In this document: positions 7,486 through 59,730 of the stretch, piece by piece
How positions within the stretch are numbered: position 1 is the stretch's first letter
How the letters are laid out: each line of letters opens with the position of its first letter
NCBI RefSeq assembly: GCF_001677475.2
Contig: NZ_CP015229.1
From: Escherichia coli
Lineage (GTDB): Bacteria; Pseudomonadota; Gammaproteobacteria; Enterobacterales; Enterobacteriaceae
Reading direction: 5' to 3' (one strand)
DNA length: 64,000 nt
Notes under the pieces: generated by a model
Database searches by the model: none
What the model was told of the DNA's origin: nothing
What the model saw: the letters and a program-made list of their open reading frames with translations, nothing else
Program-made: the position numbers and the translations under genes

Positions 7486-9219
7486 CTAAATTGGCCAGAT
7501 ATTGTCGATGATAATTTGCAGGCTGCGGTTGCCGCGAAACTCGTTAATATCGAGCTTGTAAGCCAGTTGTACTTCGCGCACGCCGTTATCCGGCCAGAGG
7601 GCGGTATCGACATTAAAAGCAATACCATCCAGCAGCGGACCGCCGCCGACCGGTTCGACCATCACCTTCAAATGACGTTCGCCCACCAGCCGCTGTTGCA
7701 GCAGACGGAAATGACCGTCAAACAGCGGCTCCGGGAACATCTGCCCCCACGGGCCAGCATCGCGCAGCAGCTGAGCCACTTCCATGGTCATTTCGGCCGG
7801 GCTTAACGGACCGTCTGACACTACTTCGCCTTGCAATAGCGAAGGGTCCAGCCACTCAGAAACCAGTTCGCCAAACCGTTGTTGAAAGAGTTCGAATTTA
7901 TCCTCTTCCAGCGACAAACCCGCCGCCATCGCATGACCGCCAAACTTGAGCATCATGCCGGGGTAGAGTGTGTCTAATCGCTCCAGCGCATCACGCATAT
8001 GCAGCCCCTGAATCGAGCGACCGGAACCTTTCAGCGTACCGTCACCTGCTGGCGCAAAGGCGATAACCGGACGGTGAAAACGCTCTTTGATGCGCGAAGC
8101 CAGAATACCGACAACGCCCTGATGCCATTCGGGGTGATACATTGCCAGCCCGCCGGGTAGCGTGTCACGGCTGCGCTCCAGTTTCTCGCACAGGGTCAGG
8201 GCTTCAATCTGCATTCCTTGTTCGATCTCTTTTCGCGTCTGGTTTAGCGCATCGAGTTCATTTGCCAGCACGCGCGCTTCGCCGATGTTGTCGCAGAGCA
8301 ACAGCGCCACACCGACGGACATATCATCCAGTCGCCCGGCAGCATTGAGACGTGGCCCCAGCGCAAAACCTAAATCGCTGGCGGCGAGTTTTTGTGCATC
8401 ACGGTTTGCCACTTCAAGCAGAGCTTTAATCCCTGGACGGCACTTTCCGGCACGGATGCGACTCATCCCCTGCCAGGTCAGAATGCGATTATTAGCGTCC
8501 AGCGGCACGACGTCCGCTACTGTCCCCAGCGCGACCAGATCCAGCAGTTCTGCCAGGTTAGGAATTGCGATGCCATGCTCATCAAACCAGCCCTGATCAC
8601 GCAAAAAGGTGCGCAGCGCCAGCATCAGATAAAACGCCACACCCACGCCTGCCAGTGATTTCGACGGGAAATTACAGTCGCGCAAGTTAGGGTTAATGAT
8701 CGCTTCCGCTGCGGGTAATGTGTCGCCCGGCAAATGGTGATCGGTAACAATAACCGGAATGCCCAACGAGCGAGCGTGTTCAACCCCCGCATGGGAGGAA
8801 ATTCCGTTATCCACCGTGACAATTAACTGCGCGCCACGGGCATGGGCCTGATCGACCACTTCCGGGCTTAAGCCGTAACCGTCTTCGAAACGGTTTGGAA
8901 CCAGGTAGTCGATATTGCTGCAACCAAGCGAGCGCATCGCCAGCACGCTTAGAGCCGTACTGGTGGCACCGTCTGCGTCGAAATCACCGACCACAATAAT
9001 CCGCGTTCCTTCGCGAAAAGCGTTGTAAAGGATCTCAACGGCCTTTTCGACGCCGCTCAGTTGCTGCCAGGGCAGCATACCTTTAACACTGCGTTCCAGT
9101 TCTTGCGCACTGCGTACTCCCCGGCTGGCGTATAAACGGCGCAGCAAGGGAGGCAATTCAGCGGGCAAGTCTGCCGTTTCATCGACTTCACGGCGACGAA
9201 GTTGTATCTGTTGTTTCAC
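7486..9219 (-). CDS. recJ: single-strand-specific 5'-3' DNA exonuclease RecJ, 577 aa
   Basis: ORF 7486..9219; DHH phosphoesterase motifs (VVGDFDADG, DHH); xerD-dsbC-recJ order. Confidence 0.95.
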   Translation of the reverse strand: MKQQIQLRRREVDETADLPAELPPLLRRLYASRGVRSAQELERSVKGMLPWQQLSGVEKAVEILYNAFREGTRIIVVGDFDADGATSTALSVLAMRSLGCSNIDYLVPNRFEDGYGLSPEVVDQAHARGAQLIVTVDNGISSHAGVEHARSLGIPVIVTDHHLPGDTLPAAEAIINPNLRDCNFPSKSLAGVGVAFYLMLALRTFLRDQGWFDEHGIAIPNLAELLDLVALGTVADVVPLDANNRILTWQGMSRIRAGKCRPGIKALLEVANRDAQKLAASDLGFALGPRLNAAGRLDDMSVGVALLLCDNIGEARVLANELDALNQTRKEIEQGMQIEALTLCEKLERSRDTLPGGLAMYHPEWHQGVVGILASRIKERFHRPVIAFAPAGDGTLKGSGRSIQGLHMRDALERLDTLYPGMMLKFGGHAMAAGLSLEEDKFELFQQRFGELVSEWLDPSLLQGEVVSDGPLSPAEMTMEVAQLLRDAGPWGQMFPEPLFDGHFRLLQQRLVGERHLKVMVEPVGGGPLLDGIAFNVDTALWPDNGVREVQLAYKLDINEFRGNRSLQIIIDNIWPI

Positions 9220-9224
9220 GCGAA

Positions 9225-9935
9225 TTATTTACCGCTGGTCATTTTTTGGTGTTCGTCGAGGAATTCTTTCATGTCTTTCGGTGGCTGGTAACCCGGAACA
9301 AGTGTGCCATTGCTCAGCACAATTGCCGGTGTGCCGCTAACGCCAAGCTGGACGCCAAGTGCGTAATGATCGGCAATATCGATATCGCAACTTGCCGGAG
9401 TGGCAGCTTTACCTGCCATCACATCATCAAACGCTTTGTTTTTATCTTTCGCACACCAGATAGCTTTCATTTCTTTCTCTGCATCGCTGTCCAGCCCCTG
9501 GCGCGGGAAAGCAAGATAACGCACGGTGATCCCCAGCGCGTTGTAGTCTGCCATTTGCTCATGCAGTTTGTGGCAGTAACCACAGGTAATATCAGTAAAC
9601 ACGGTGATGACGTGTTTTTCCTGCGGCGCTTTATAAACGATCATCTCTTTTTCAAGCGCATTCAACTGCTTTAACAGCATCTTATTGGTGACATTGACCG
9701 GAGCCGTGCCACTAACGTCATACATTGGCCCCTGAATGATATGTTTACCATCATCGGTGATGTACAACACACCGCTGTTAGTCAGAACTGTCTTCATGCC
9801 AGCTACAGGCGCGGGCTGAATATCGCTGCTTTTGATGCCCATTTTGGCTAACGTTTGTTGAATTGCCGCGTCATCAGCCTGAGCAAAGCCTGAAAACGCC
9901 GCTAACAAAGTAAACAACATAAAACCTTTCTTCAT
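9225..9935 (-). CDS. dsbC: periplasmic disulfide isomerase DsbC, 236 aa
   Basis: ORF 9225..9935; signal peptide and CGYC active site. Confidence 0.95.
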   Translation of the reverse strand: MKKGFMLFTLLAAFSGFAQADDAAIQQTLAKMGIKSSDIQPAPVAGMKTVLTNSGVLYITDDGKHIIQGPMYDVSGTAPVNVTNKMLLKQLNALEKEMIVYKAPQEKHVITVFTDITCGYCHKLHEQMADYNALGITVRYLAFPRQGLDSDAEKEMKAIWCAKDKNKAFDDVMAGKAATPASCDIDIADHYALGVQLGVSGTPAIVLSNGTLVPGYQPPKDMKEFLDEHQKMTSGK

Positions 9936-9959
9936 AAATCTTCCCGTTCTTTTCAGACA

Positions 9960-10856
9960 TCACGCCCGCGGGTGATGCTGTTGATGAAGTTGCCGCAGAC
10001 GCTCGGTAGCGACATGCGTATAAATTTGCGTGGTGGAGAGATCGCTGTGGCCCAGTAGCATCTGCACCACGCGTAAATCCGCACCATGATTTAATAAATG
10101 AGTGGCAAAAGCGTGACGCAACACATGCGGTGACAGCTTTTCGCTGTCGATACCCGCCAGCACGGCATAATGTTTAATGCGGTGCCAGAAGGTTTGTCGC
10201 GTCATCTGCTGCGCACGCTGGCTGGGGAACAACACATCAATAGAGACACCGTTCAACAACCACGGTCGCCCATGCTCGAGATACGTTTCCAGCCAGTAAA
10301 CCGCCTCTTCACCTAACGGTACCAGGCGCTCTTTGTTGCCTTTACCAATGACCCGCACTACGCCCTGACGCAGGCTGATATCACTCATTGTCAGTCCGAC
10401 CAGTTCAGAGACACGCAGCCCGGTAGCATACAACACTTCAAGCATGGCTTTATCGCGTAGCTCCAGTGGCTGATCAATTAATGGTGCCTGTAATAAACGT
10501 TCAACCTGCGCTTCGCTTAAATCTTTTGGCAAACGCTGGGGCAATTTCGGTGAAGCGAGATGCGCACTGGGATCGTCTTCACGAAACTTTTCGCGATAAA
10601 GATACTGGAACAATCGGCGCACTGCACTCAGCAAACGCGCTGAGCTGGTGGCTTTATACCCGCCCTCCAGCCGTTCTGCCAGTAATGCCTGCAAATCGTC
10701 ACTTTGCGCAGTCGCCAGCGTCAACCCGCGGTGATGCAACCACTCCACCATCATTGACAGATCGCGACGGTATGCGTTCAACGTATTTTCAGCCAGATTT
10801 TTTTCCAGCCACAGAGCATCAAGAAACTGCTCGATGCGTGCCAGATCCTGTTTCAC
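9960..10856 (-). CDS. xerD: site-specific tyrosine recombinase XerD, 298 aa
   Basis: ORF 9960..10856; tyrosine recombinase C-terminal motifs (HxLRH...Y); core gene, not an integrase of a mobile element. Confidence 0.95.
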   Translation of the reverse strand: MKQDLARIEQFLDALWLEKNLAENTLNAYRRDLSMMVEWLHHRGLTLATAQSDDLQALLAERLEGGYKATSSARLLSAVRRLFQYLYREKFREDDPSAHLASPKLPQRLPKDLSEAQVERLLQAPLIDQPLELRDKAMLEVLYATGLRVSELVGLTMSDISLRQGVVRVIGKGNKERLVPLGEEAVYWLETYLEHGRPWLLNGVSIDVLFPSQRAQQMTRQTFWHRIKHYAVLAGIDSEKLSPHVLRHAFATHLLNHGADLRVVQMLLGHSDLSTTQIYTHVATERLRQLHQQHHPRA

Positions 10857-10967
10857 TTGCGCCCCTTATGGTCACTCATTTGATCCATTATGCCTTATTG
10901 TGCCGTGACTAAAGCGATTCTGATACACTAGCCGCAAAAGCCACAGCAGAATCGAGAAGCTTACGTT

Positions 10968-11489
10968 ATGAATATGGGTCTTTTTTACGGTTCCAGCACC
11001 TGTTACACCGAAATGGCGGCAGAAAAAATCCGCGATATTATCGGCCCAGAACTGGTGACCTTACATAACCTCAAGGACGACTCCCCGAAATTAATGGAGC
11101 AGTACGATGTGCTCATTCTGGGTATCCCGACCTGGGATTTTGGCGAAATCCAGGAAGACTGGGAAGCCATCTGGGATCAGCTCGACGACCTGAACCTCGA
11201 AGGTAAAATTGTTGCGCTGTATGGGCTTGGCGATCAACTGGGATACGGCGAGTGGTTCCTCGATGCGCTCGGTATGCTGCATGACAAGCTCTCGACCAAA
11301 GGCGTGAAGTTCGTCGGCTACTGGCCAACGGAAGGATATGAGTTTACCAGCCCGAAACCGGTGATTGCTGACGGGCAACTGTTCGTGGGCCTGGCGCTGG
11401 ACGAAACTAATCAGTATGACCTTAGCGACGAGCGTATTCAGAACTGGTGCGAGCAAATCCTCAACGAAATGGCAGAGCATTACGCCTGA
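10968..11489 (+). CDS. fldB: flavodoxin 2, 173 aa
   Basis: ORF 10968..11489; flavodoxin fold sequence; divergent from xerD. Confidence 0.9.
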
Positions 11490-11528
11490 TGTCACTGACG
11501 GCTTAGCGCATATGCTTTGCCGTCATCT

Positions 11529-12195
<667 letters not shown>

Positions 12196-12425
12196 TCACG
12201 AAAATCCAGTACCCGGCTATTGTAACGTGTTTTTCGACTTCTTTTACGGGAATATCAGTAAACACAATCGCGATCGCGAAATTAATTCACAACAATTCAA
12301 GAGCTTCATTTTTTTGGAAGTCGCCTCGCAGAAGGCACAGATCGCGTAGTGAAAGCACTTGCATTGCCTCATAGCTCTTTTACCATTAGTTATTAATACG
12401 CCGTTAAGCAACTCAGGACTCTATT

Positions 12426-13406
12426 ATGGCTTTTACACCTTTTCCTCCCCGTCAGCCTACGGCTTCTGCCCGTTTACCGCTGACGCTGATGACGCTTGAT
12501 GACTGGGCGCTTGCCACCATTACTGGCGCGGACAGCGAAAAATATATGCAGGGTCAGGTGACAGCAGATGTCAGCCAGATGACAGAAAATCAGCATCTGC
12601 TCGCCGCCCATTGCGACGCCAAAGGTAAAATGTGGAGCAATTTACGTCTGTTCCGCGACGGCGATGGCTTTGCATGGATTGAACGGCGCAGCGTGCGTGA
12701 ACCGCAGCTGACTGAACTGAAAAAATATGCGGTGTTCTCTAAAGTGACCATCGCGCCAGACGACGAGCGTGTGCTGCTTGGTGTTGCCGGTTTTCAGGCG
12801 CGCGCCGCGCTGGCCAATCTCTTTAGTGAACTGCCTTCGAAAGAAAAACAGGTAGTTAAAGAAGGCGCGACCACTTTGCTATGGTTTGAACACCCGGCAG
12901 AACGTTTCCTGATCGTAACCGATGAAGCTACTGCCAATATGCTGACCGATAAACTGCGCGGTGAAGCGGAACTGAACAATAGCCAACAGTGGCTGGCATT
13001 AAACATTGAAGCGGGTTTCCCGGTGATTGATGCCGCGAACAGCGGGCAGTTTATCCCACAGGCGACCAATCTCCAGGCGCTGGGCGGTATCAGCTTTAAG
13101 AAAGGCTGTTATACCGGACAAGAGATGGTGGCGCGAGCAAAATTCCGTGGTGCCAATAAACGTGCGCTCTGGTTGCTGGCAGGTAGTGCCAGCCGACTGC
13201 CGGAAGCTGGTGAAGATTTAGAGCTGAAAATGGGCGAGAACTGGCGTCGCACCGGTACGGTGCTGGCTGCGGTAAAACTGGAAGATGGTCAGGTCGTGGT
13301 ACAGGTCGTCATGAATAACGATATGGAACCGGACAGCATCTTCCGCGTGCGTGACGATGCGAATACATTGCATATCGAGCCGCTGCCGTATTCGCTCGAA
13401 GAGTAA
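12426..13406 (+). CDS. ygfZ: folate-binding Fe-S cluster repair/tRNA modification protein YgfZ, 326 aa
   Basis: ORF 12426..13406; GcvT-like fold sequence with KGCYTGQE motif. Confidence 0.9.
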
Positions 13407-13413
13407 ATCTCTG

Positions 13414-13448
13414 TGTCGCATCAGGCATTTATCGCCTGATGCGACACG
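13414..13448. terminator. long perfect hairpin between convergent ygfZ and yqfA
   Basis: GTGTCGCATCAGGC / GCCTGATGCGACAC, 14-bp perfect stem with a 7-nt loop; arms contain the REP-like GCCTGATGCG motif. Confidence 0.6.
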
Positions 13449-13482
13449 GGTGTGTCTTTTCAGGCCTACAAAGGCACACCCA

Positions 13483-14145
<663 letters not shown>

Positions 14146-14305
14146 TTACTCCGGAGAAACGTACACGCACATGTATACCTCTCCAGCGTAACTGAGAATA
14201 GTTCCAGTGAACACCTGTTAGCTAAAATAAATTCTGATTTGAGACTAATCTCCGAAAAATCAGGAAATTAAATGCGAAATTTCAACTAACAGGCGTGAGT
14301 TCAAT

Positions 14306-14617
14306 TTAAAGGCATTTAAATTCAATCACATAAAACTGTGTCTGGCCGGGATAGATATCGGCAATGACCTTTTTCAGATCAGTCAGGGGCATATTTTCCT
14401 GCTCTGCATGTTTTTCCGTCAGTGTATCCAGCGTTACGGTTGAGGTTGCGGTGACTTCAATCGTGCAAAAATAACCGTCATCTTCAAAACGTCCGACACG
14501 AAGCACATCACCCGTTTTGAAGTGCGATTCAGACTCGTCGCGGATGGTGATGGTTTTACGCCCAGCCAGAATGTCATCCTGGAAACGTTGAAAAAAAGTG
14601 ATGTCGTTTGGCTGCAT
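14306..14617 (-). CDS. yqfB: ASCH-domain protein YqfB, 103 aa
   Basis: ORF 14306..14617; matches the K-12 length and position, divergent from bglA. Confidence 0.85.
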
Positions 14618-14634
14618 GGTACTATTTCCTGTAA

Positions 14635-16095
<1,461 letters not shown>

Positions 16096-16106
16096 GTAGA
16101 TGAAGT

Positions 16107-16139
16107 ACCGGATGCAATGCTTGTTGCGTTGCATCCGGT
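16107..16139. terminator. hairpin between convergent bglA and ygfF
   Basis: ACCGGATGCAA ... TTGCATCCGGT, 11-bp stem. Confidence 0.55.
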
Positions 16140-16156
16140 CAGACAACTTTCCTGCT

Positions 16157-16900
16157 TTATTTCCCGCCCGCCAAATCGATAAAACTTCCCGTGACATAAG
16201 AGGCTTTATCACTAAGCAGCCAGACAATGGCCTGCGCGACCTCTTCCGCCTGTCCGCCGCGCTGCATGGGGATGTTCGACTTAACGCGATCGACGCGTCC
16301 GGGTTCACCACCGCTGGCATGCATTTCGGTATAAATAAACCCAGGCCGCACGCCGTTAACGCGAATGCCCTGCGCGGCGACTTCCAGCGATAATCCGGTG
16401 GTTAACGTATCAATCGCCCCTTTCGATGCCGCATAATCAACGTATTCTCCGGGTGATCCCAGCCTGGCTGCTACCGAAGAAACATTGACGATAGCGCCGC
16501 CACTGCCGCCGTTTTTCAGCGCCATGCGTTTTACCGCCTCGCGGCAGCAGAGAAAATAACCCGTCACGTTGGTGGAAAGTACTTGGTTGATTCGCTCTGC
16601 CGTGAGATTTTCCACTGTGCATTGGGTAAACAATATTCCTGCGTTATTGACCAGCGCGGCTAACGGTTCATCACGCTGATCGATTGCTGTAAACATTGCG
16701 ATAACCTGATTTTCGTCGCTGATATCCGCCTGGAGCACAAATGCCTTGCCACCGGCTTGCGTTATTAAGTTCACCACTTCCTGCGCCGCGTGGAGGTTTT
16801 GCTGATAATTAACCGCCACCGTATACCCTTCTTTTACCAGCAGCAGCGCAGTTGCCCGCCCAATGCCGCGACTACCACCGGTCACAAGTGCTATAGCCAT
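16157..16900 (-). CDS. ygfF: short-chain dehydrogenase/reductase, 247 aa
   Basis: ORF 16157..16900; TGGSRGIG Rossmann motif and YAASK catalytic motif. Confidence 0.9.
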   Translation of the reverse strand: MAIALVTGGSRGIGRATALLLVKEGYTVAVNYQQNLHAAQEVVNLITQAGGKAFVLQADISDENQVIAMFTAIDQRDEPLAALVNNAGILFTQCTVENLTAERINQVLSTNVTGYFLCCREAVKRMALKNGGSGGAIVNVSSVAARLGSPGEYVDYAASKGAIDTLTTGLSLEVAAQGIRVNGVRPGFIYTEMHASGGEPGRVDRVKSNIPMQRGGQAEEVAQAIVWLLSDKASYVTGSFIDLAGGK

Positions 16901-16916
16901 TTGTTTTCCCCAAAAA

Positions 16917-17106
16917 TAAAGGCGCCGAAGCGCCTTTCAAATTGATGACAAAGTGCGTTTTTATGCCGGATGCGGCGTGAACGCCTTATCCAGCCTACAA
17001 GATCGTGCAAATTCAATACATTGCAGAGACCATGTAGGCCTGATAAACGAAGTGCATCAGGCAATGTTGAGTTTGTCATCAGCCTCAAAGGCGCCGAAGC
17101 GCCTTT
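16917..17106. repeat. REP pair (BIME/RIP-like): two inverted REP units with a linker, bracketed by duplicated hairpin AAAGGCGCCGAAGCGCCTTT
   Basis: REP unit TGCCGGATGCGGCGTGAACGCCTTATCCAGCCTAC (about 16964-16998) and inverted unit TGCCTGATGCACTTCGTTTATCAGGCCTAC (about 17033-17064); identical 20-bp hairpins at 16918-16937 and 17087-17106. Confidence 0.8.
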
Positions 17107-17128
17107 AGAAGATAGTCGAATCAGTAAA

Positions 17129-20002
17129 TTACTGGTATTCGCTAATCGGTACGCAGGAGCAGAACAGGTTACGGTCGCCGTAAACATCATCCAGACGTTT
17201 CACTGTTGGCCAGTATTTGTCTGCCACGCCTGCCGGGAATACTGCAACGTCACGGCTGTACGGATGCGCCCACTCGGCGACCAGTTCGCTCTGAATGTGC
17301 GGCGCGTTCACCAGCGGGTTATCTTCCAGCGGCCAGACACCAGCTTTCACCTGTTCAATTTCTGCGCGGATAGCCAGCATAGCGTCGATAAAGCGATCCA
17401 GTTCCACTTTGCTTTCAGATTCAGTCGGTTCAACCATCAGCGTACCCGCCACCGGGAACGACATCGTCGGCGCGTGGAAACCGTAGTCGATCAGGCGCTT
17501 GGCAATATCCAGCTCGCTGATGCCGGTTTCTTCTTTCAGCGGGCGAATATCGAGAATACATTCGTGCGCCACGCGACCGTCGCGACCGGTATACAGCACC
17601 GGGAAGGCATCCTGCAGGCGGCTGGCAATATAGTTGGCGTTAAGAATTGCCACCTGGCTTGCTTTTTTCAGCCCTTCTGCGCCCATCATGCGGATGTACA
17701 TCCAGCTGATTGGCAGAATGGATGCGCTACCGAACGGTGCCGCAGAAACCGCGCCCTGACGGGTTAACATGCCTTCGATTTGCACCACGCTATGACCCGG
17801 TACAAACGGTGCCAGATGCGCTTTCACACCGATCGGTCCCATACCCGGACCACCACCGCCGTGCGGAATGCAGAAAGTTTTATGCAGGTTAAGGTGCGAA
17901 ACATCCGCGCCAATAAAGCCCGGCGAAGTGATACCAACCTGAGCGTTCATGTTCGCGCCATCAAGGTAAACCTGACCACCGAACTGATGCACGACTTCAC
18001 ACACCTCACGGATCGTTTCTTCATACACGCCGTGGGTGGAAGGATAGGTCACCATGATACAGGAGAGGTTATCGCCCGCCTGTTCCGCTTTCGCGCGCAG
18101 ATCAGTCAGATCGATGTTGCCGTTTTTATCACACGCCACAACCACCACCTGCATTCCTGCCATATGTGCAGAAGCGGGGTTAGTTCCGTGCGCAGAAGCC
18201 GGGATCAGGCAGATATCGCGATGCCCTTCGTTGCGGCTTTCATGATAATGACGAATCGCCAGCAGGCCCGCATATTCGCCCTGTGCGCCAGAGTTCGGCT
18301 GCATACAAACGGCGTCGTAACCGGTCAGTTTCACCAGCCAGTCAGCCAACTGCGCAATCATCTGCTGATAACCTTCGGCCTGTTCCGGCGGGCAGAACGG
18401 GTGCAGTTCGGCAAATTCCGGCCAGGTGATTGGGATCATCTCGGCGGCGGCGTTCAGTTTCATGGTGCAGGAACCCAGCGGGATCATCGCCTGATTCAGC
18501 GCCAGATCTTTACGCTCCAGCGAGTGCATATAGCGCATCATTTCGGTTTCGCTGTGGTAGCGATTAAACACCGGATGAGTGAGGATTTCGTCGTCGCGCA
18601 GCATCGCAGGCTGAATAGAGCGGCTGTCGTGAGCCACGTCTTTGTCCAGCGTGTCGATCTCCAGCCCGTGGTTATCGCCCAGCAGCACGCTGAAAAGCTG
18701 CATCACGTTTTCACGCGTGGTGGTTTCATCAAGGGTGATCCCAACCGCGTTCAGGATATCGCTACGCAGGTTGATTTCAGCCGCTTCGGCACGCGTCAGT
18801 ACGCCCGCTTTGTCGGCCACTTCCACACACAAGGTGTCGAAATAGTGCGCATGACGCAGTTTCAGACCTTTTTGTTGCAGGCCCGCCGCCAGGATATCGG
18901 TCAGACGGTGGATGCGGTTAGCGATACGTTTCAGGCCCACCGGGCCGTGATAAACGGCATACAGGCTGGCGATGTTTGCCAGCAGTACCTGGGAAGTACA
19001 AATGTTGGAGTTCGCTTTCTCACGGCGAATATGTTGCTCGCGAGTCTGCATCGCCATGCGCAGCGCGGTATTGCCAGCTGCATCTTTCGATACACCGATA
19101 ATACGGCCCGGCATTGAGCGTTTGTATTCATCTTTCGCCGCAAAGAATGCCGCGTGTGGGCCTCCGTAGCCCATCGGCACGCCGAAACGTTGCGCCGAAC
19201 CAAAGACAATATCCGCGCCCTGTTTACCCGGCGCAGTTAACAGCACCAGCGCCATAATATCGGCGGCAACGCTGACCACGATTTTGCGTGATTTCAGTTC
19301 GCTGATAAGCGCAGTATAGTCGTGGATTTCACCGGTAGTGCCGACCTGCTGTAACAGCACGCCGAAGACGTCCTGATGATCGAGCACTTTTTGCGCGTCA
19401 TCGACAATCACTTCAAAACCAAAGGTTTCGGCACGAGTACGGACCACATCCAGCGTTTGCGGATGCACATCGGAAGCCACGAAGAAGCGGTTGGCATTTT
19501 TCAGTTTGCTGACGCGTTTCGCCATCGCCATTGCTTCGGCGGCAGCAGTGGCTTCGTCAAGAAGAGAAGCCGATGCCATATCCAGCCCGGTTAAATCCAG
19601 CGTTACCTGCTGGAAGTTGAGCAGTGCTTCAAGGCGGCCCTGGGAGACTTCAGGTTGATACGGAGTATACGCGGTATACCAGCCCGGATTTTCCAGCATG
19701 TTACGCAGGATAACCGGCGGTAACTGCACGGCGGTGTACCCCATGCCGATGTAAGACGTGAAGCGTTTATTGCGACTGGCAATAGCCTTGAGTTCTGCCA
19801 GTGCGGCGTATTCGGTCGCCGGTGCGCCAACCTGCGGCGGAGTCGCAAGCTGAATATCTTTCGGCACAATCTGGCCGGTCAGCGCGTTTAACGATTGTGC
19901 GCCAACGGCATTCAGCATTTCTTGCTGTTGCGCGGCGTCCGGTCCGATATGGCGTTCAATAAAAGCGCCGCTGTTTTCAAGCTGGCTTAACGTCTGTGTC
20001 AT
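17129..20002 (-). CDS. gcvP: glycine dehydrogenase (decarboxylating), glycine cleavage P protein, 957 aa
   Basis: ORF 17129..20086; start at [11 protein letters not shown] (ATG 20002..20000) gives the K-12 length. Confidence 0.95.
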
Positions 20003-26943: not shown

Positions 26944-27127
26944 ATTTCTCTGAGATGTTCGCAAGCGGGCCAGTCCCCTGAGCCGATATTTCATACCACA
27001 AGAATGTGGCGCTCCGCGGTTGGTGAGCATGCTCGGTCCGTCCGAGAAGCCTTAAAACTGCGACGACACATTCACCTTGAACCAAGGGTTCAAGGGTTAC
27101 AGCCTGCGGCGGCATCTCGGAGATTCC
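26944..27127 (+). ncRNA. ssrS: 6S RNA
   Basis: Matches the E. coli 6S RNA as I remember it from ATTTCTCTGAGATGTTCGCAAGCGGGCCAGTCCCC to GGCATCTCGGAGATTCC; ends approximate to a few nt. Confidence 0.9.
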
Positions 27128-27750: not shown

Positions 27751-27810
27751 GGGCGACACACCTGCATCGCCCTGATTGACATCGTTGATTCTTTAACCTA
27801 ATTTAGTGAG

Positions 27811-27951
27811 TAAGGGTAAGGGAGGATTGCTCCTCCCCTGAGACTGACTGTTAATAAGCTGGGAAACTTATGAGTAACAGTACAATCAGTATGATGACAA
27901 GTCGCATCATAACCCTTCTCCTTTAAGCCCTCGCTTCGGTGAGGGCTTTTC
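27811..27951 (+). ncRNA. sibC: Sib-family antitoxin sRNA (SibC), antisense to ibsC
   Basis: Promoter TTGACA (27776-27781), 17-nt spacer, TAATTT (27799-27804); terminator hairpin AGCCCTCGCTTCGGTGAGGGCT plus T-run at 27926-27951; ends approximate. Confidence 0.65.
27851..27910 (-). CDS. ibsC: type I toxin peptide IbsC, 19 aa (MMRLVIILIVLLLISFPAY as translated here)
   Basis: Minus-strand ATG 27910..27908 to TAA 27853..27851; short hydrophobic peptide fully inside the antisense sRNA. Confidence 0.7.
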   Translation of the reverse strand: MMRLVIILIVLLLISFPAY

Positions 27952-34104: not shown

Positions 34105-35092
34105 TGAAGCCACGCTGGCAGAAAGTATTCGCCGCTTACGTCAGGGTGAGCGTGCCACGCTCGCCCAGGCCATGACGTTGGTGGAAAGCCGTCACCCGCG
34201 TCATCAGGCGCTAAGTACGCAGCTGCTTGATGCCATTATGCCGTTCTGTGGTAACGCCCTGCGACTGGGCGTTACCGGCACACCCGGCGCGGGGAAAAGT
34301 ACCTTTCTTGAAGCCTTTGGCATGTTGTTGATTCGTGATGGATTAAAGGTTGCGGTTATTGCGGTCGATCCCAGCAGCCCGGTCACTGGCGGTAGCATCC
34401 TCGGGGATAAAACCCGCATGAATGACCTTGCGCGTGCCGAGGCGGCGTTTATTCGCCCGGTACCCTCCTCCGGCCATCTGGGCGGTGCCAGTCAGCGAGC
34501 GCGGGAATTAATGCTGTTATGCGAAGCGGCGGGTTATGACGTAGTGATTGTCGAAACGGTTGGCGTCGGGCAGTCAGAAACGGAAGTCGCCCGCATGGTG
34601 GACTGTTTTATCTCGTTGCAAATTGCCGGTGGCGGCGATGATCTGCAGGGCATTAAAAAGGGGCTGATGGAAGTGGCAGATCTGATCGTTATCAACAAAG
34701 ACGATGGCGATAACCATACCAATGTCGCCATTGCCCGGCATATGTACGAGAGTGCCCTGCATATTCTGCGACGTAAATACGACGAATGGCAGCCACGGGT
34801 TCTGACTTGTAGCGCACTGGAAAAACGTGGAATCGATGAGATCTGGCACGCCATCATCGACTTCAAAACCGCGCTAACTGCCAGTGGTCGATTACAACAA
34901 GTGCGGCAACAACAATCGGTGGAATGGCTGCGTAAGCAGACCGAAGAAGAAGTACTGAATCGCCTGTTCGCGAATGAAGATTTCGATCGCTATTACCGCC
35001 AGACGCTTTTAGCGGTCAAAAACAATACGCTCTCACCGCGCACCGGCCTGCGGCAGCTCAGTGAATTTATCCAGACGCAATATTTTGATTAA
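34097..35092 (+). CDS. argK: G3E-family GTPase ArgK/MeaB-like, 331 aa
   Basis: ORF 34097..35092; P-loop GTPGAGKST; 8-nt overlap with scpA. Confidence 0.9.
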
Positions 35093-38283: not shown

Positions 38284-38421
38284 ACCCCCTCCCCCGCATC
38301 CTTGTCCGCTTAACCGTTTCAGTCAGCCTATCCTTGATGAAACCGCGAGCAAAGATAGGTGATTACGTCATGGTTTTACAGAAAATTACAGAAAAAGGAG
38401 GCAATATCGGGTAAAGGCATT

Positions 38422-38443
38422 AGCCCGACGAATACGTCGGGCT
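38422..38443 (-). other. 9-bp-stem hairpin just downstream of yggE (possible terminator or 3' stabiliser)
   Basis: AGCCCGACG-AATA-CGTCGGGCT; no clean T-run follows on the minus strand. Confidence 0.35.
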
Positions 38444-38450
38444 ACAAATA

Positions 38451-41050: not shown

Positions 41051-41250
41051 GCTTTTGGCGAAAAATCCCCGCAGAGCGGGGCTCAGACAGATATCAATGT
41101 GCGCTTTGTCATGCCGGATGCGGCGTGAACGCCTTATCCGGCCTACAAAAACCTGCAAATTCAATATATTGCAGGATACGTGTAGGCCTGATAAGCGTAG
41201 CGCATCAGGCAACTTTTCTTTTGGCGAAAAAAAGACCCGCAGAGCGGGCC
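41051..41250. repeat. REP pair (BIME/RIP-like) bracketed by a ~30-bp direct repeat containing a small hairpin
   Basis: REP unit TGCCGGATGCGGCGTGAACGCCTTATCCGGCCTAC and inverted unit TGCCTGATGCGCTACGCTTATCAGGCCTAC; flanks TTTTGGCGAAAAA..CCCGCAGAGCGGG at 41054-41083 and 41220-41250. Confidence 0.8.
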
Positions 41251-57174: not shown

Positions 57175-57933
57175 ATGAAAATTCGCGCCTTATTGGTAGC
57201 AATGAGCGTGGCAACGGTACTGACCGGTTGCCAGAATATGGACTCCAACGGACTGCTCTCATCAGGAGCGGAAGCTTTTCAGGCTTACAGTTTGAGTGAT
57301 GCGCAGGTGAAAACCCTGAGCGATCAGGCATGTCAGGAGATGGACAGCAAGGCGACGATTGCGCCAGCCAATAGCGAATACGCTAAACGTCTGACAACTA
57401 TTGCCAATGCGCTAGGCAACAATATCAACGGTCAGCCGGTGAATTACAAAGTGTATATGGCGAAGGATGTGAACGCCTTTGCAATGGCTAACGGCTGTAT
57501 CCGCGTCTATAGCGGGCTGATGGATATGATGACGGATAACGAAGTCGAAGCGGTGATCGGTCACGAGATGGGGCACGTGGCGTTAGGCCATGTGAAAAAA
57601 GGGATGCAGGTGGCGCTTGGTACAAATGCCGTGCGAGTAGCTGCGGCCTCTGCGGGCGGGATTGTCGGCAGTTTATCGCAATCACAACTTGGTGATCTGG
57701 GCGAGAAATTAGTCAATTCGCAATTCTCCCAGCGCCAGGAAGCAGAAGCCGATGATTACTCTTATGATCTTCTGCGCCAACGCGGCATCAGCCCGGCAGG
57801 TCTTGCCACCAGCTTTGAAAAACTGGCGAAACTGGAAGAAGGCCGCCAAAGCTCAATGTTTGACGACCACCCAGCATCCGCCGAACGCGCCCAGCATATT
57901 CGCGATCGTATGAGCGCGGATGGGGTTAAGTGA
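57175..57933 (+). CDS. loiP: outer-membrane M48-family metalloprotease LoiP, 252 aa
   Basis: 3' part of ORF 56956..57933; start at MKIRALLVAM (ATG 57175); lipobox LTGC; HEMGH zinc motif. Confidence 0.9.
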   Translation: MKIRALLVAMSVATVLTGCQNMDSNGLLSSGAEAFQAYSLSDAQVKTLSDQACQEMDSKATIAPANSEYAKRLTTIANALGNNINGQPVNYKVYMAKDVNAFAMANGCIRVYSGLMDMMTDNEVEAVIGHEMGHVALGHVKKGMQVALGTNAVRVAAASAGGIVGSLSQSQLGDLGEKLVNSQFSQRQEAEADDYSYDLLRQRGISPAGLATSFEKLAKLEEGRQSSMFDDHPASAERAQHIRDRMSADGVK

Positions 57934-57940
57934 TTTCATA

Positions 57941-57972
57941 TTTCTCCGACAGGAATGTCGGAGAAATTTTCA
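57941..57972 (+). terminator. loiP intrinsic terminator
   Basis: TTTCTCCGACA-GGAAT-GTCGGAGAAA followed by TTTTCATTC. Confidence 0.75.
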
Positions 57973-59664: not shown

Positions 59665-59701
59665 GTTTTAAATGATAAGTCCCTTGTGCCAGACAAGGGA
59701 C
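59665..59701 (-). terminator. hairpin downstream of speB
   Basis: Perfect 8-bp stem GTCCCTTG/CAAGGGAC followed on the minus strand by a T-rich tract. Confidence 0.5.
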
Positions 59702-59730
59702 TGTGCAAAAAATTCGACCAGGCAGGTTAC

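Follow-up and report, generated by a model that had tools for sequence, protein, structure and literature searches.

What is the long palindrome lodged between the convergent genes ygfZ and trhA (yqfA) of Escherichia coli, and what might it do for the two messages whose coding sequences meet there? In the window, by which we mean the whole stretch of 64,000 nucleotides that was analysed, the sequence GTGTCGCATCAGGC-ATTTATC-GCCTGATGCGACAC constitutes a 14-bp inverted repeat around a loop of 7 nt. A preliminary description had called its stem perfect, and so it is: the two arms, 13413-13426 and 13434-13447, are 100% complementary. The palindrome had been placed at 13414-13448, one base away from its actual position, 13413-13447, and the gap between the ygfZ stop and the stem, given as 8 nt, measures 6 nt (ATCTCT). 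The distance of 35 nt from the stem to the trhA stop (13483-13485, minus strand) had been counted correctly.

The 14-bp stem is the longest perfect hairpin of the window when loops of 3-10 nt are allowed, the runner-up having 12 bp. The window was simulated 40 times with a first-order Markov model, and the longest perfect stem per simulation varied between 8 and 12 bp, so that 14 bp exceeds chance. Compared with dinucleotide shuffles, the 96-nt region folds with a z-score of -8.3 on the + strand and -7.2 on the - strand. As for the other hairpins of the window, the second-longest is situated at 57940-57967 (ATTTCTCCGACA-GGAA-TGTCGGAGAAAT, with a 12-bp stem and a 4-nt loop), and further perfect ones of 10 bp occur at 38421-38444, 59678-59702 and 34250-34276.

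The two genes and the elements between them are arranged as follows.

12426-13406, + strand: ygfZ coding sequence, 326 aa, with the stop codon TAA at 13404-13406 (from the ORF list; annotated as ygfZ in matching E. coli genomes).
13407-13412: linker ATCTCT, 6 nt, from the ygfZ stop to the stem; ATCTCT in 11 of 11 aligned short E. coli-type alleles.
13413-13426, + strand: left arm of the palindrome, GTGTCGCATCAGGC, which copies the head half of a z2 REP in inverted orientation, without the other half and without GTAG; perfect complement of 13434-13447.
13427-13433: loop ATTTATC, a 7-nt head-to-head linker; ATTTATC in E. coli alleles, ATCTATT or ATCTATC in cryptic clades.
13434-13447, + strand: right arm of the palindrome, GCCTGATGCGACAC, which is the REP head half; pairs either with the left arm (100%) or with the REP's own tail half at 13452-13465 (79%).
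13434-13469, - strand: complete 36-nt z2-type REP, GTAGGCCTGAAAAGACACACCCGTGTCGCATCAGGC (an iREP on the + strand), 31/36 identical to K-12 REP3, with a tail motif match and an imperfect hairpin of its own (-16.8/-16.4 kcal/mol).
13448-13481: second hairpin, GGGTGTGTCTTT / AAAGGCACACCC, 12 pairs and a 10-nt loop, built from the REP loop, tail and flank; 1 nt from the trhA stop.
13466-13469, - strand: GTAG tetranucleotide of the REP (CTAC on the + strand), by direct reading; abuts the stem.
13483-14142, - strand: trhA (yqfA) coding sequence, 219 aa, with the stop codon at 13483-13485 (from the ORF list; annotated as trhA/yqfA in matching genomes).

The right arm of the palindrome is thus the head of a larger unit. 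In E. coli, a REP is defined as an imperfect palindrome of 30-40 nt, with GTAG located 5' of its foot and a mismatch in its stem (Ton-Hoang et al. 2012, PMC3333891). At 13434-13469 there is an imperfect palindrome of 36 nt; its GTAG, at 13466-13469, directly adjoins the foot of the palindrome; and its stem is interrupted by an internal loop, the kind of mismatch that is needed for TnpAREP binding. Folded alone, it adopts the structure ((((((...(((((....)))))...)))))).... at -16.8 kcal/mol, with arms that are 79% complementary. The tail reads TTTTC instead of the TTATC of the canonical z2 unit, which enlarges the internal loop to 3x3. The unit is extragenic, lying between the two stop codons, and belongs to a high-copy family: its head motif occurs 4 times in the window against 0.03 expected, its tail motif 8 times against 0.39, and the K-12 spacer sequence finds matches at a median of 11 places per genome. 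A match to the tail motif at 57275-57288, CTTTTCAGGCTTAC, contains 2 mismatches, has no REP head near it and is most likely due to chance.

Taking as z2 reference the K-12 copies at the ygfZ-trhA locus rather than a published consensus, 31 of the 36 positions are identical to K-12 REP3 (GCCTGATGCGACGCTGGCGCGTCTTATCAGGCCTAC), and a compensated stem pair accounts for one of the differences. The preliminary description had asked for such a comparison with REPs, which identifies 13434-13469 as a z2-type unit like the copy found at the same locus in K-12. It had also pointed to a REP-like motif in the arms; this motif, GCCTGATGCG, does recur, with 3 occurrences in the window where 0.25 are expected. 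Its notion of a solo REP-derived unit was right about the derivation and wrong about the solitude: a complete z2 REP at 13434-13469 is accompanied by an inverted half-copy. The third arm at 13452-13465, the CTAC/GTAG tail at 13466-13469 and the neighbouring hairpin at 13448-13481 had escaped notice. No REP features are annotated in this region of the RefSeq K-12 record, and the REP call rests on the sequence itself. Altogether, it is nearly certain that the element consists of a REP plus an inverted half-copy of the REP head.

Since the REP head pairs here with the extra left half-copy, the 14-bp hairpin is not the REP's own fold: the composite stem reaches -26.7 kcal/mol, against -16.8 kcal/mol for the latter. 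The second hairpin, at 13448-13481, is predicted at -18.4 kcal/mol on the + strand and -13.6 kcal/mol on the - strand. Both hairpins appear in the minimum-energy fold of either strand and, standing side by side, they take up nearly all of the 76-nt spacer. The second hairpin is allele-specific and absent from K-12-type alleles.

How does this arrangement relate to known classes of elements? With the z2 REPs of BIME-2 arrays it shares the 36-nt unit, the GTAG foot, the imperfect stem, the extragenic position between convergent genes and a number of units that varies between strains. It differs from them in having one full REP, which is partnered by a half-copy, likewise of z type, set head-to-head across a 7-nt linker. 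In a canonical BIME, this partner is a full y REP placed across an S or L linker, whereas here it is a 14-nt z-type half-copy without GTAG. With respect to the canonical z2 unit, the REP of the window has its own stem weakened (TTATC to TTTTC), and the change in its inner stem, from GACGC/GCGTC to GACAC/GTGTC, is compensated.

A BIME is defined as two complete inverse REPs, y with z1 or z2, joined by an L or S linker. The hairpin falls outside this definition because its partner is a same-type half-copy with a 7-nt linker. Textbook BIME-1 elements are found elsewhere in the window, at 16965-17062 and 41113-41210, each composed of a y REP and an inverted z1 REP on either side of a long linker. 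The linkers of the two, 16999-17041 and 41147-41189, match the Rfam family of the ES036/CssrF sRNA (RF02751) above its gathering score; RF02751 therefore appears to correspond to the BIME-1 linker.

At the locus itself, Rfam gives no match at gathering thresholds. The sub-threshold hits are naRNA4 (RF02564) and a spurious microRNA; with 25.0 bits against a gathering score of 59.5, the locus stays outside the naRNA4 family. Like REP325/naRNA4 (Harris et al. 2026 preprint), which contains z2 units and is transcribed in a 3'UTR, it can be assigned a role of the same kind as the one proposed there, terminator and stabiliser. REP325 is, however, an array of 12 hairpins inside an operon, and the window presents a single unit between convergent genes.

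The spacer between ygfZ and trhA varies in size. Its 76 nt in the window compare with 195 nt in K-12, where three REPs follow one another (z2, inverted y, z2). This K-12-type three-REP allele is present in approximately 2197 of 5426 complete genomes (at least 80% query coverage), and an allele of the window's length in roughly 2900 of the same 5426. The K-12 allele contains a 29-nt perfect direct repeat with a spacing of 119 bp; subtracting one 119-bp unit from it gives exactly the short allele carried by other strains (L009/L012), whose spacer measures 76 nt as in the window. It is documented that the number of BIME units at one locus varies between strains (PMC3333891). The 76-nt spacer is the one-unit allele of a size-variable REP/BIME locus.

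Depending on the allele, the number of REPs at this position is 1, 3 or at least 5. Among the outgroups, multi-REP arrays are found in E. albertii, E. whittamii and most cryptic-clade genomes; the allele of one cryptic-clade genome is short. Citrobacter and Salmonella carry REP types of their own in the same spacer (L019-L038); in Yokenella (L077), it is REP-free and holds a simple GC hairpin that ends in a T-rich tail. REPs appear to have landed in this spacer repeatedly across Enterobacteriaceae. One contig in the comparison, L091 (CACSKA010000005.1), is labelled Chryseobacterium sp. 18061, but its YgfZ is 81% identical to that of E. coli and ranks among Enterobacteriaceae; the assembly is probably contaminated or mislabelled.

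The window itself belongs to E. coli proper, its flanks being 97-98% identical to K-12. Over the 10 kb from 9000 to 19000, none of the 5426 complete E. coli genomes exceeds about 97.2% identity, and yet a 70-nt segment of the spacer is identical in six of them. Either the window comes from a sparsely sampled lineage, or the stretch 9000-19000 is a mosaic.

Is the perfection of the stem itself special? We compared eleven distinct short alleles, a shallow set for covariation. An inner core of about 11 bp (TCGCATCAGGC / GCCTGATGCGA) is common to the short alleles, and its left-arm sequence recurs in most E. coli alleles. The three outer pairs vary, the left arm reading GTG, GTA or TTA and the right arm CAC, CGC or CAA, and they do not co-vary: of the 11 allele classes, 3 lack pair 10-44 and 5 lack pair 12-42. 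In the REP stem, pair 37-56 is unpaired in 7 of 11 alleles. The identical 70-mer with the perfect 14-bp stem occurs in 6 of 5426 complete genomes, among them those of strains Z1323HEC0462 (NZ_CP148331) and XDL (NZ_CP043033). The figure counts exact 70-mers and is complemented by sampled neighbouring alleles, BLAST identity bands mixing partial and full exact matches. In the nearest alleles (strains 042, SMS-3-5, 118UI and PK8275), the stem is broken at a single position, different in each.

Covariation tells a similar story. For the palindrome, the eleven alleles provide one compensatory pair (A-U to U-A), from a single cryptic-clade allele, a result equalled by 153 of 500 shuffles. The REP's own inner stem contains one compensated pair, GACGC/GCGTC against GACAC/GTGTC, a weak signal (6/500). 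The second hairpin is 88.6% paired across alleles, with a covariation no different from that of shuffles. For E. albertii, E. whittamii and two genomes of cryptic clades, folding predicts the canonical REP hairpin, with the left arm unpaired, and a hairpin of some sort is present in the ygfZ-trhA spacer of every genome examined. The perfect 14 bp are a rare allelic state built on an 11-bp core, and neither the allele comparison nor the covariation gives a sign of selection on stem perfection.

As to how the perfect stem arose, one candidate is a quasipalindrome template switch (GTATC to GTGTC, matching GACAC). It cannot explain the O157:H7 allele, in which the left arm has GTGTC and the right arm GACGC, and recombination between alleles may account for the perfect stem equally well.

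We now turn to transcription. By definition, an intrinsic terminator combines a GC-rich stem with an immediately following U-rich tract of 7-8 nt; the hairpin possesses such a stem and lacks such a tract, its tails being GGGTGTGT on the + strand and AGAGATTT on the - strand. The first reading of the locus had already mentioned missing U-runs on its flanks. No T-run adjoins the stem on either strand, although TGTGTCTTTT begins 3 nt past it on the + strand. A lenient terminator scan flagged the + strand alone (13410-13450, 17 pairs), and did so only with the stem lengthened by G-T pairs.

In K-12, termination at this locus has been mapped on both strands with and without inhibition of Rho by bicyclomycin (BCM) (Adams et al. 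2021, PMC7815308). On the + strand, a Rho region is reported at 3042772, 283 nt into the antisense of trhA, with upstream/downstream coverage of 149/19 without BCM and 156/165 with it. On the - strand, the corresponding region is at 3042422, inside the spacer, with 191/42 without BCM and 188/174 with it (PMC7815308). Read-through in K-12 is nearly complete when Rho is inhibited; therefore, the K-12 hairpins alone do not stop the polymerase. The sole curated K-12 3' end in the spacer lies on the + strand at 3042438, 13 nt after REP2 (the inverted y), and the same listing gives no curated minus-strand 3' end near the K-12 spacer (PMC7815308). As this 3' end is some 108 nt beyond the homologue of our hairpin, K-12 transcripts read through the homologous 11-bp hairpin.

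On each strand of the window, a C-rich, G-poor tract is found 80-280 nt past the hairpins; the two rank between the 95th and the 99th percentile of the local background (C-G measured in 80-nt windows, for which the 95th percentile of the window is 0.125 and the 99th 0.188). They are plausible Rho-loading regions.

13588-13727, + strand (antisense to trhA): C-rich, G-poor tract, candidate Rho-loading region for ygfZ read-through (C-G +0.15 to +0.17).
13173-13332, - strand (antisense to ygfZ): C-rich, G-poor tract, candidate Rho-loading region for trhA read-through (C-G +0.15 to +0.19).

We propose that the hairpins probably serve as exonuclease barriers for both convergent mRNAs, with Rho terminating downstream. 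RNA polymerase coming from either gene would pass the hairpins, because no proper U-tract follows them; Rho would stop it a few hundred nt beyond, within the antisense of the neighbouring gene. The transcript would then be trimmed in the 3'-to-5' direction by PNPase and RNase II until these are blocked by the hairpins, and the mRNA 3' ends would thus be set and protected in both directions.

Several published observations are in line with such a scheme. After Rho-dependent termination, PNPase and RNase II trim the transcripts as far as stable stem-loops without a U-tract, REPs included (Dar & Sorek 2018, PMC6061677). REP325 has been characterised both as a stabiliser and as a terminator that depends in part on Rho, and a REP between two convergent genes is associated with a higher expression of both (Harris et al., bioRxiv 10.64898/2026.03.23.713779). 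In the supplements of the latter study, ygfZ and trhA feature only in expression tables, and the ygfZ-trhA locus is absent from the RepRanger supplements. The Rho dependence and the 3' end at the REP array come from the literature and concern the K-12 allele alone; for the hairpin of the window, we infer the barrier role. Less favourable to the scheme are the place of the K-12 3' end after REP2, the ordinary mRNA half-lives of genes with terminal REPs genome-wide, the missing covariation, the freely varying outer pairs and the predicted folds of E. albertii, E. whittamii and two cryptic-clade genomes.

A close functional parallel is offered by the protective 3' stem-loops of Rho-dependent transcripts and the classical REP stabilisers (PMC6061677; Newbury et al. 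1987, as cited there). They too are stable stem-loops without a U-tract, situated shortly after a coding sequence, and the likeness extends to the Rho termination mapped downstream at the orthologous K-12 locus and to the C-rich tracts downstream in the window. The difference is that the K-12 3' end, as mapped, follows another REP of the array. From the outset, the hairpin had been suspected of being a bidirectional 3' stabiliser rather than a classical terminator; the K-12 Rho data and the model of Dar & Sorek agree with this suggestion, the position of the K-12 3' end speaks against it, and both would carry over to the window by analogy from a longer, different allele.

Could the hairpin instead be a neutral by-product? 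It would then be debris of REP/BIME turnover, left by RAYT activity, deletion between direct REPs or recombination of alleles, and tolerated without any effect on the genes. We find this somewhat unlikely. The spacer is indeed highly variable between strains and species (1, 3 or 5+ REPs, with Citrobacter and Salmonella having their own types); the perfect form is limited to 6 of 5426 genomes, surrounded by neighbours with scattered single-base breaks; no covariation signal was detected; and between-strain variation of BIME copy number at a given locus is known. A global effect of REPs on half-life is lacking as well: genome-wide, genes with a terminal REP do not have longer-lived mRNAs (bioRxiv 10.64898/2026.03.23.713779). 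However, a stable stem-loop located 3' of a Rho-terminated gene is expected to affect the position of the 3' end, whatever its origin. The 11-bp core is conserved across E. coli alleles, and no genome examined, that of the REP-free Yokenella included, has a spacer devoid of some kind of hairpin.

Another possible effect, compatible with the exonuclease barrier that we favour, is a down-regulation coupled to translation: structures close to the stop codons would stall terminating ribosomes, leading to mRNA cleavage, trans-translation and lower amounts of YgfZ and TrhA. According to Liang et al. 2015, as related in PMC12306157, REPs less than 16 nt after a stop codon stall terminating ribosomes. 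Here, the stem starts 6 nt after the ygfZ stop, below this limit of 16 nt; on the other strand, the trhA stop is followed by the second hairpin after 1 nt and by the REP after 13 nt. When 15-18 nt counted from the start of the ygfZ stop codon (the codon plus 12-15 nt) are kept single-stranded, which is about the footprint of a ribosome, the palindrome shrinks to 8 or 5 bp, so a terminating ribosome would have to melt most of it. The published effect, though, was shown on canonical REP folds and not on a composite hairpin, and K-12 RNA-seq shows good expression of the two genes, with base means of ~5000 and ~3500. We hold a down-regulation of this sort to be unlikely.

It is quite improbable that the hairpin works as a bidirectional intrinsic terminator, its strength alone dislodging RNA polymerase arriving from either gene. 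Such terminators do resemble it in that one strong palindromic hairpin is common to two convergent genes, and the stem is GC-rich and very stable (-26.7 kcal/mol). The scan flag on the + strand, 13410-13450, comes with a marginal T-rich tail, TGTGTCTTTT, which may allow some intrinsic termination; the 306 bidirectional terminators predicted between convergent E. coli genes contain 78 REPs (Harris et al., bioRxiv 10.64898/2026.03.23.713779); and the GC hairpin of the REP-free Yokenella spacer, with its T-rich tail, is an ordinary one. Unlike these terminators, the hairpin has no flanking A- or U-tracts: no U-tract abuts the stem on either strand, no A-tract precedes it, and the minus-strand tail reads AGAGATTTACTC. 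In addition, K-12 is Rho-dependent on both strands, with nearly complete read-through on each under Rho inhibition, in an allele that is longer and whose core stem, at 11 bp, is weaker.

Finally, it is very improbable that the half-copy is an 'anti-REP' within a three-arm switch, keeping the REP out of its canonical mismatched fold, even if perfect-palindrome mutants are neither bound nor cleaved by TnpAREP (PMC3333891) and the 14-bp hairpin might therefore mask the REP. Were it true, the REP would be hidden on single-stranded DNA from the RAYT transposase TnpAREP, and the locus frozen; on RNA, a ribosome at the ygfZ stop would peel away the left arm and cause refolding downstream, coupling the 3' structure to translation.

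Established knowledge covers REPs, the copy-number polymorphism of BIMEs and the protection of 3' ends by REPs, and the locus is a strain variant of one that is already known. The value of the analysis lies mainly in a clean-up: a striking palindrome resolves into a standard REP with an inverted half-copy, and no new kind of element is involved. Still, a natural allelic series is available at a single convergent pair, comprising alleles with no perfect stem, with the 11-bp core, with the perfect 14 bp and with the three-REP array. It could serve to probe REP architecture with respect to mRNA 3' ends, Rho termination and translation termination. Among structured RNAs encoded elsewhere in the window, 6S RNA (ssrS, 139.8 bits) at 26944-27127 and a Sib antitoxin RNA (138.2 bits) at 27776-27926, both on the + strand, are ordinary for the region.
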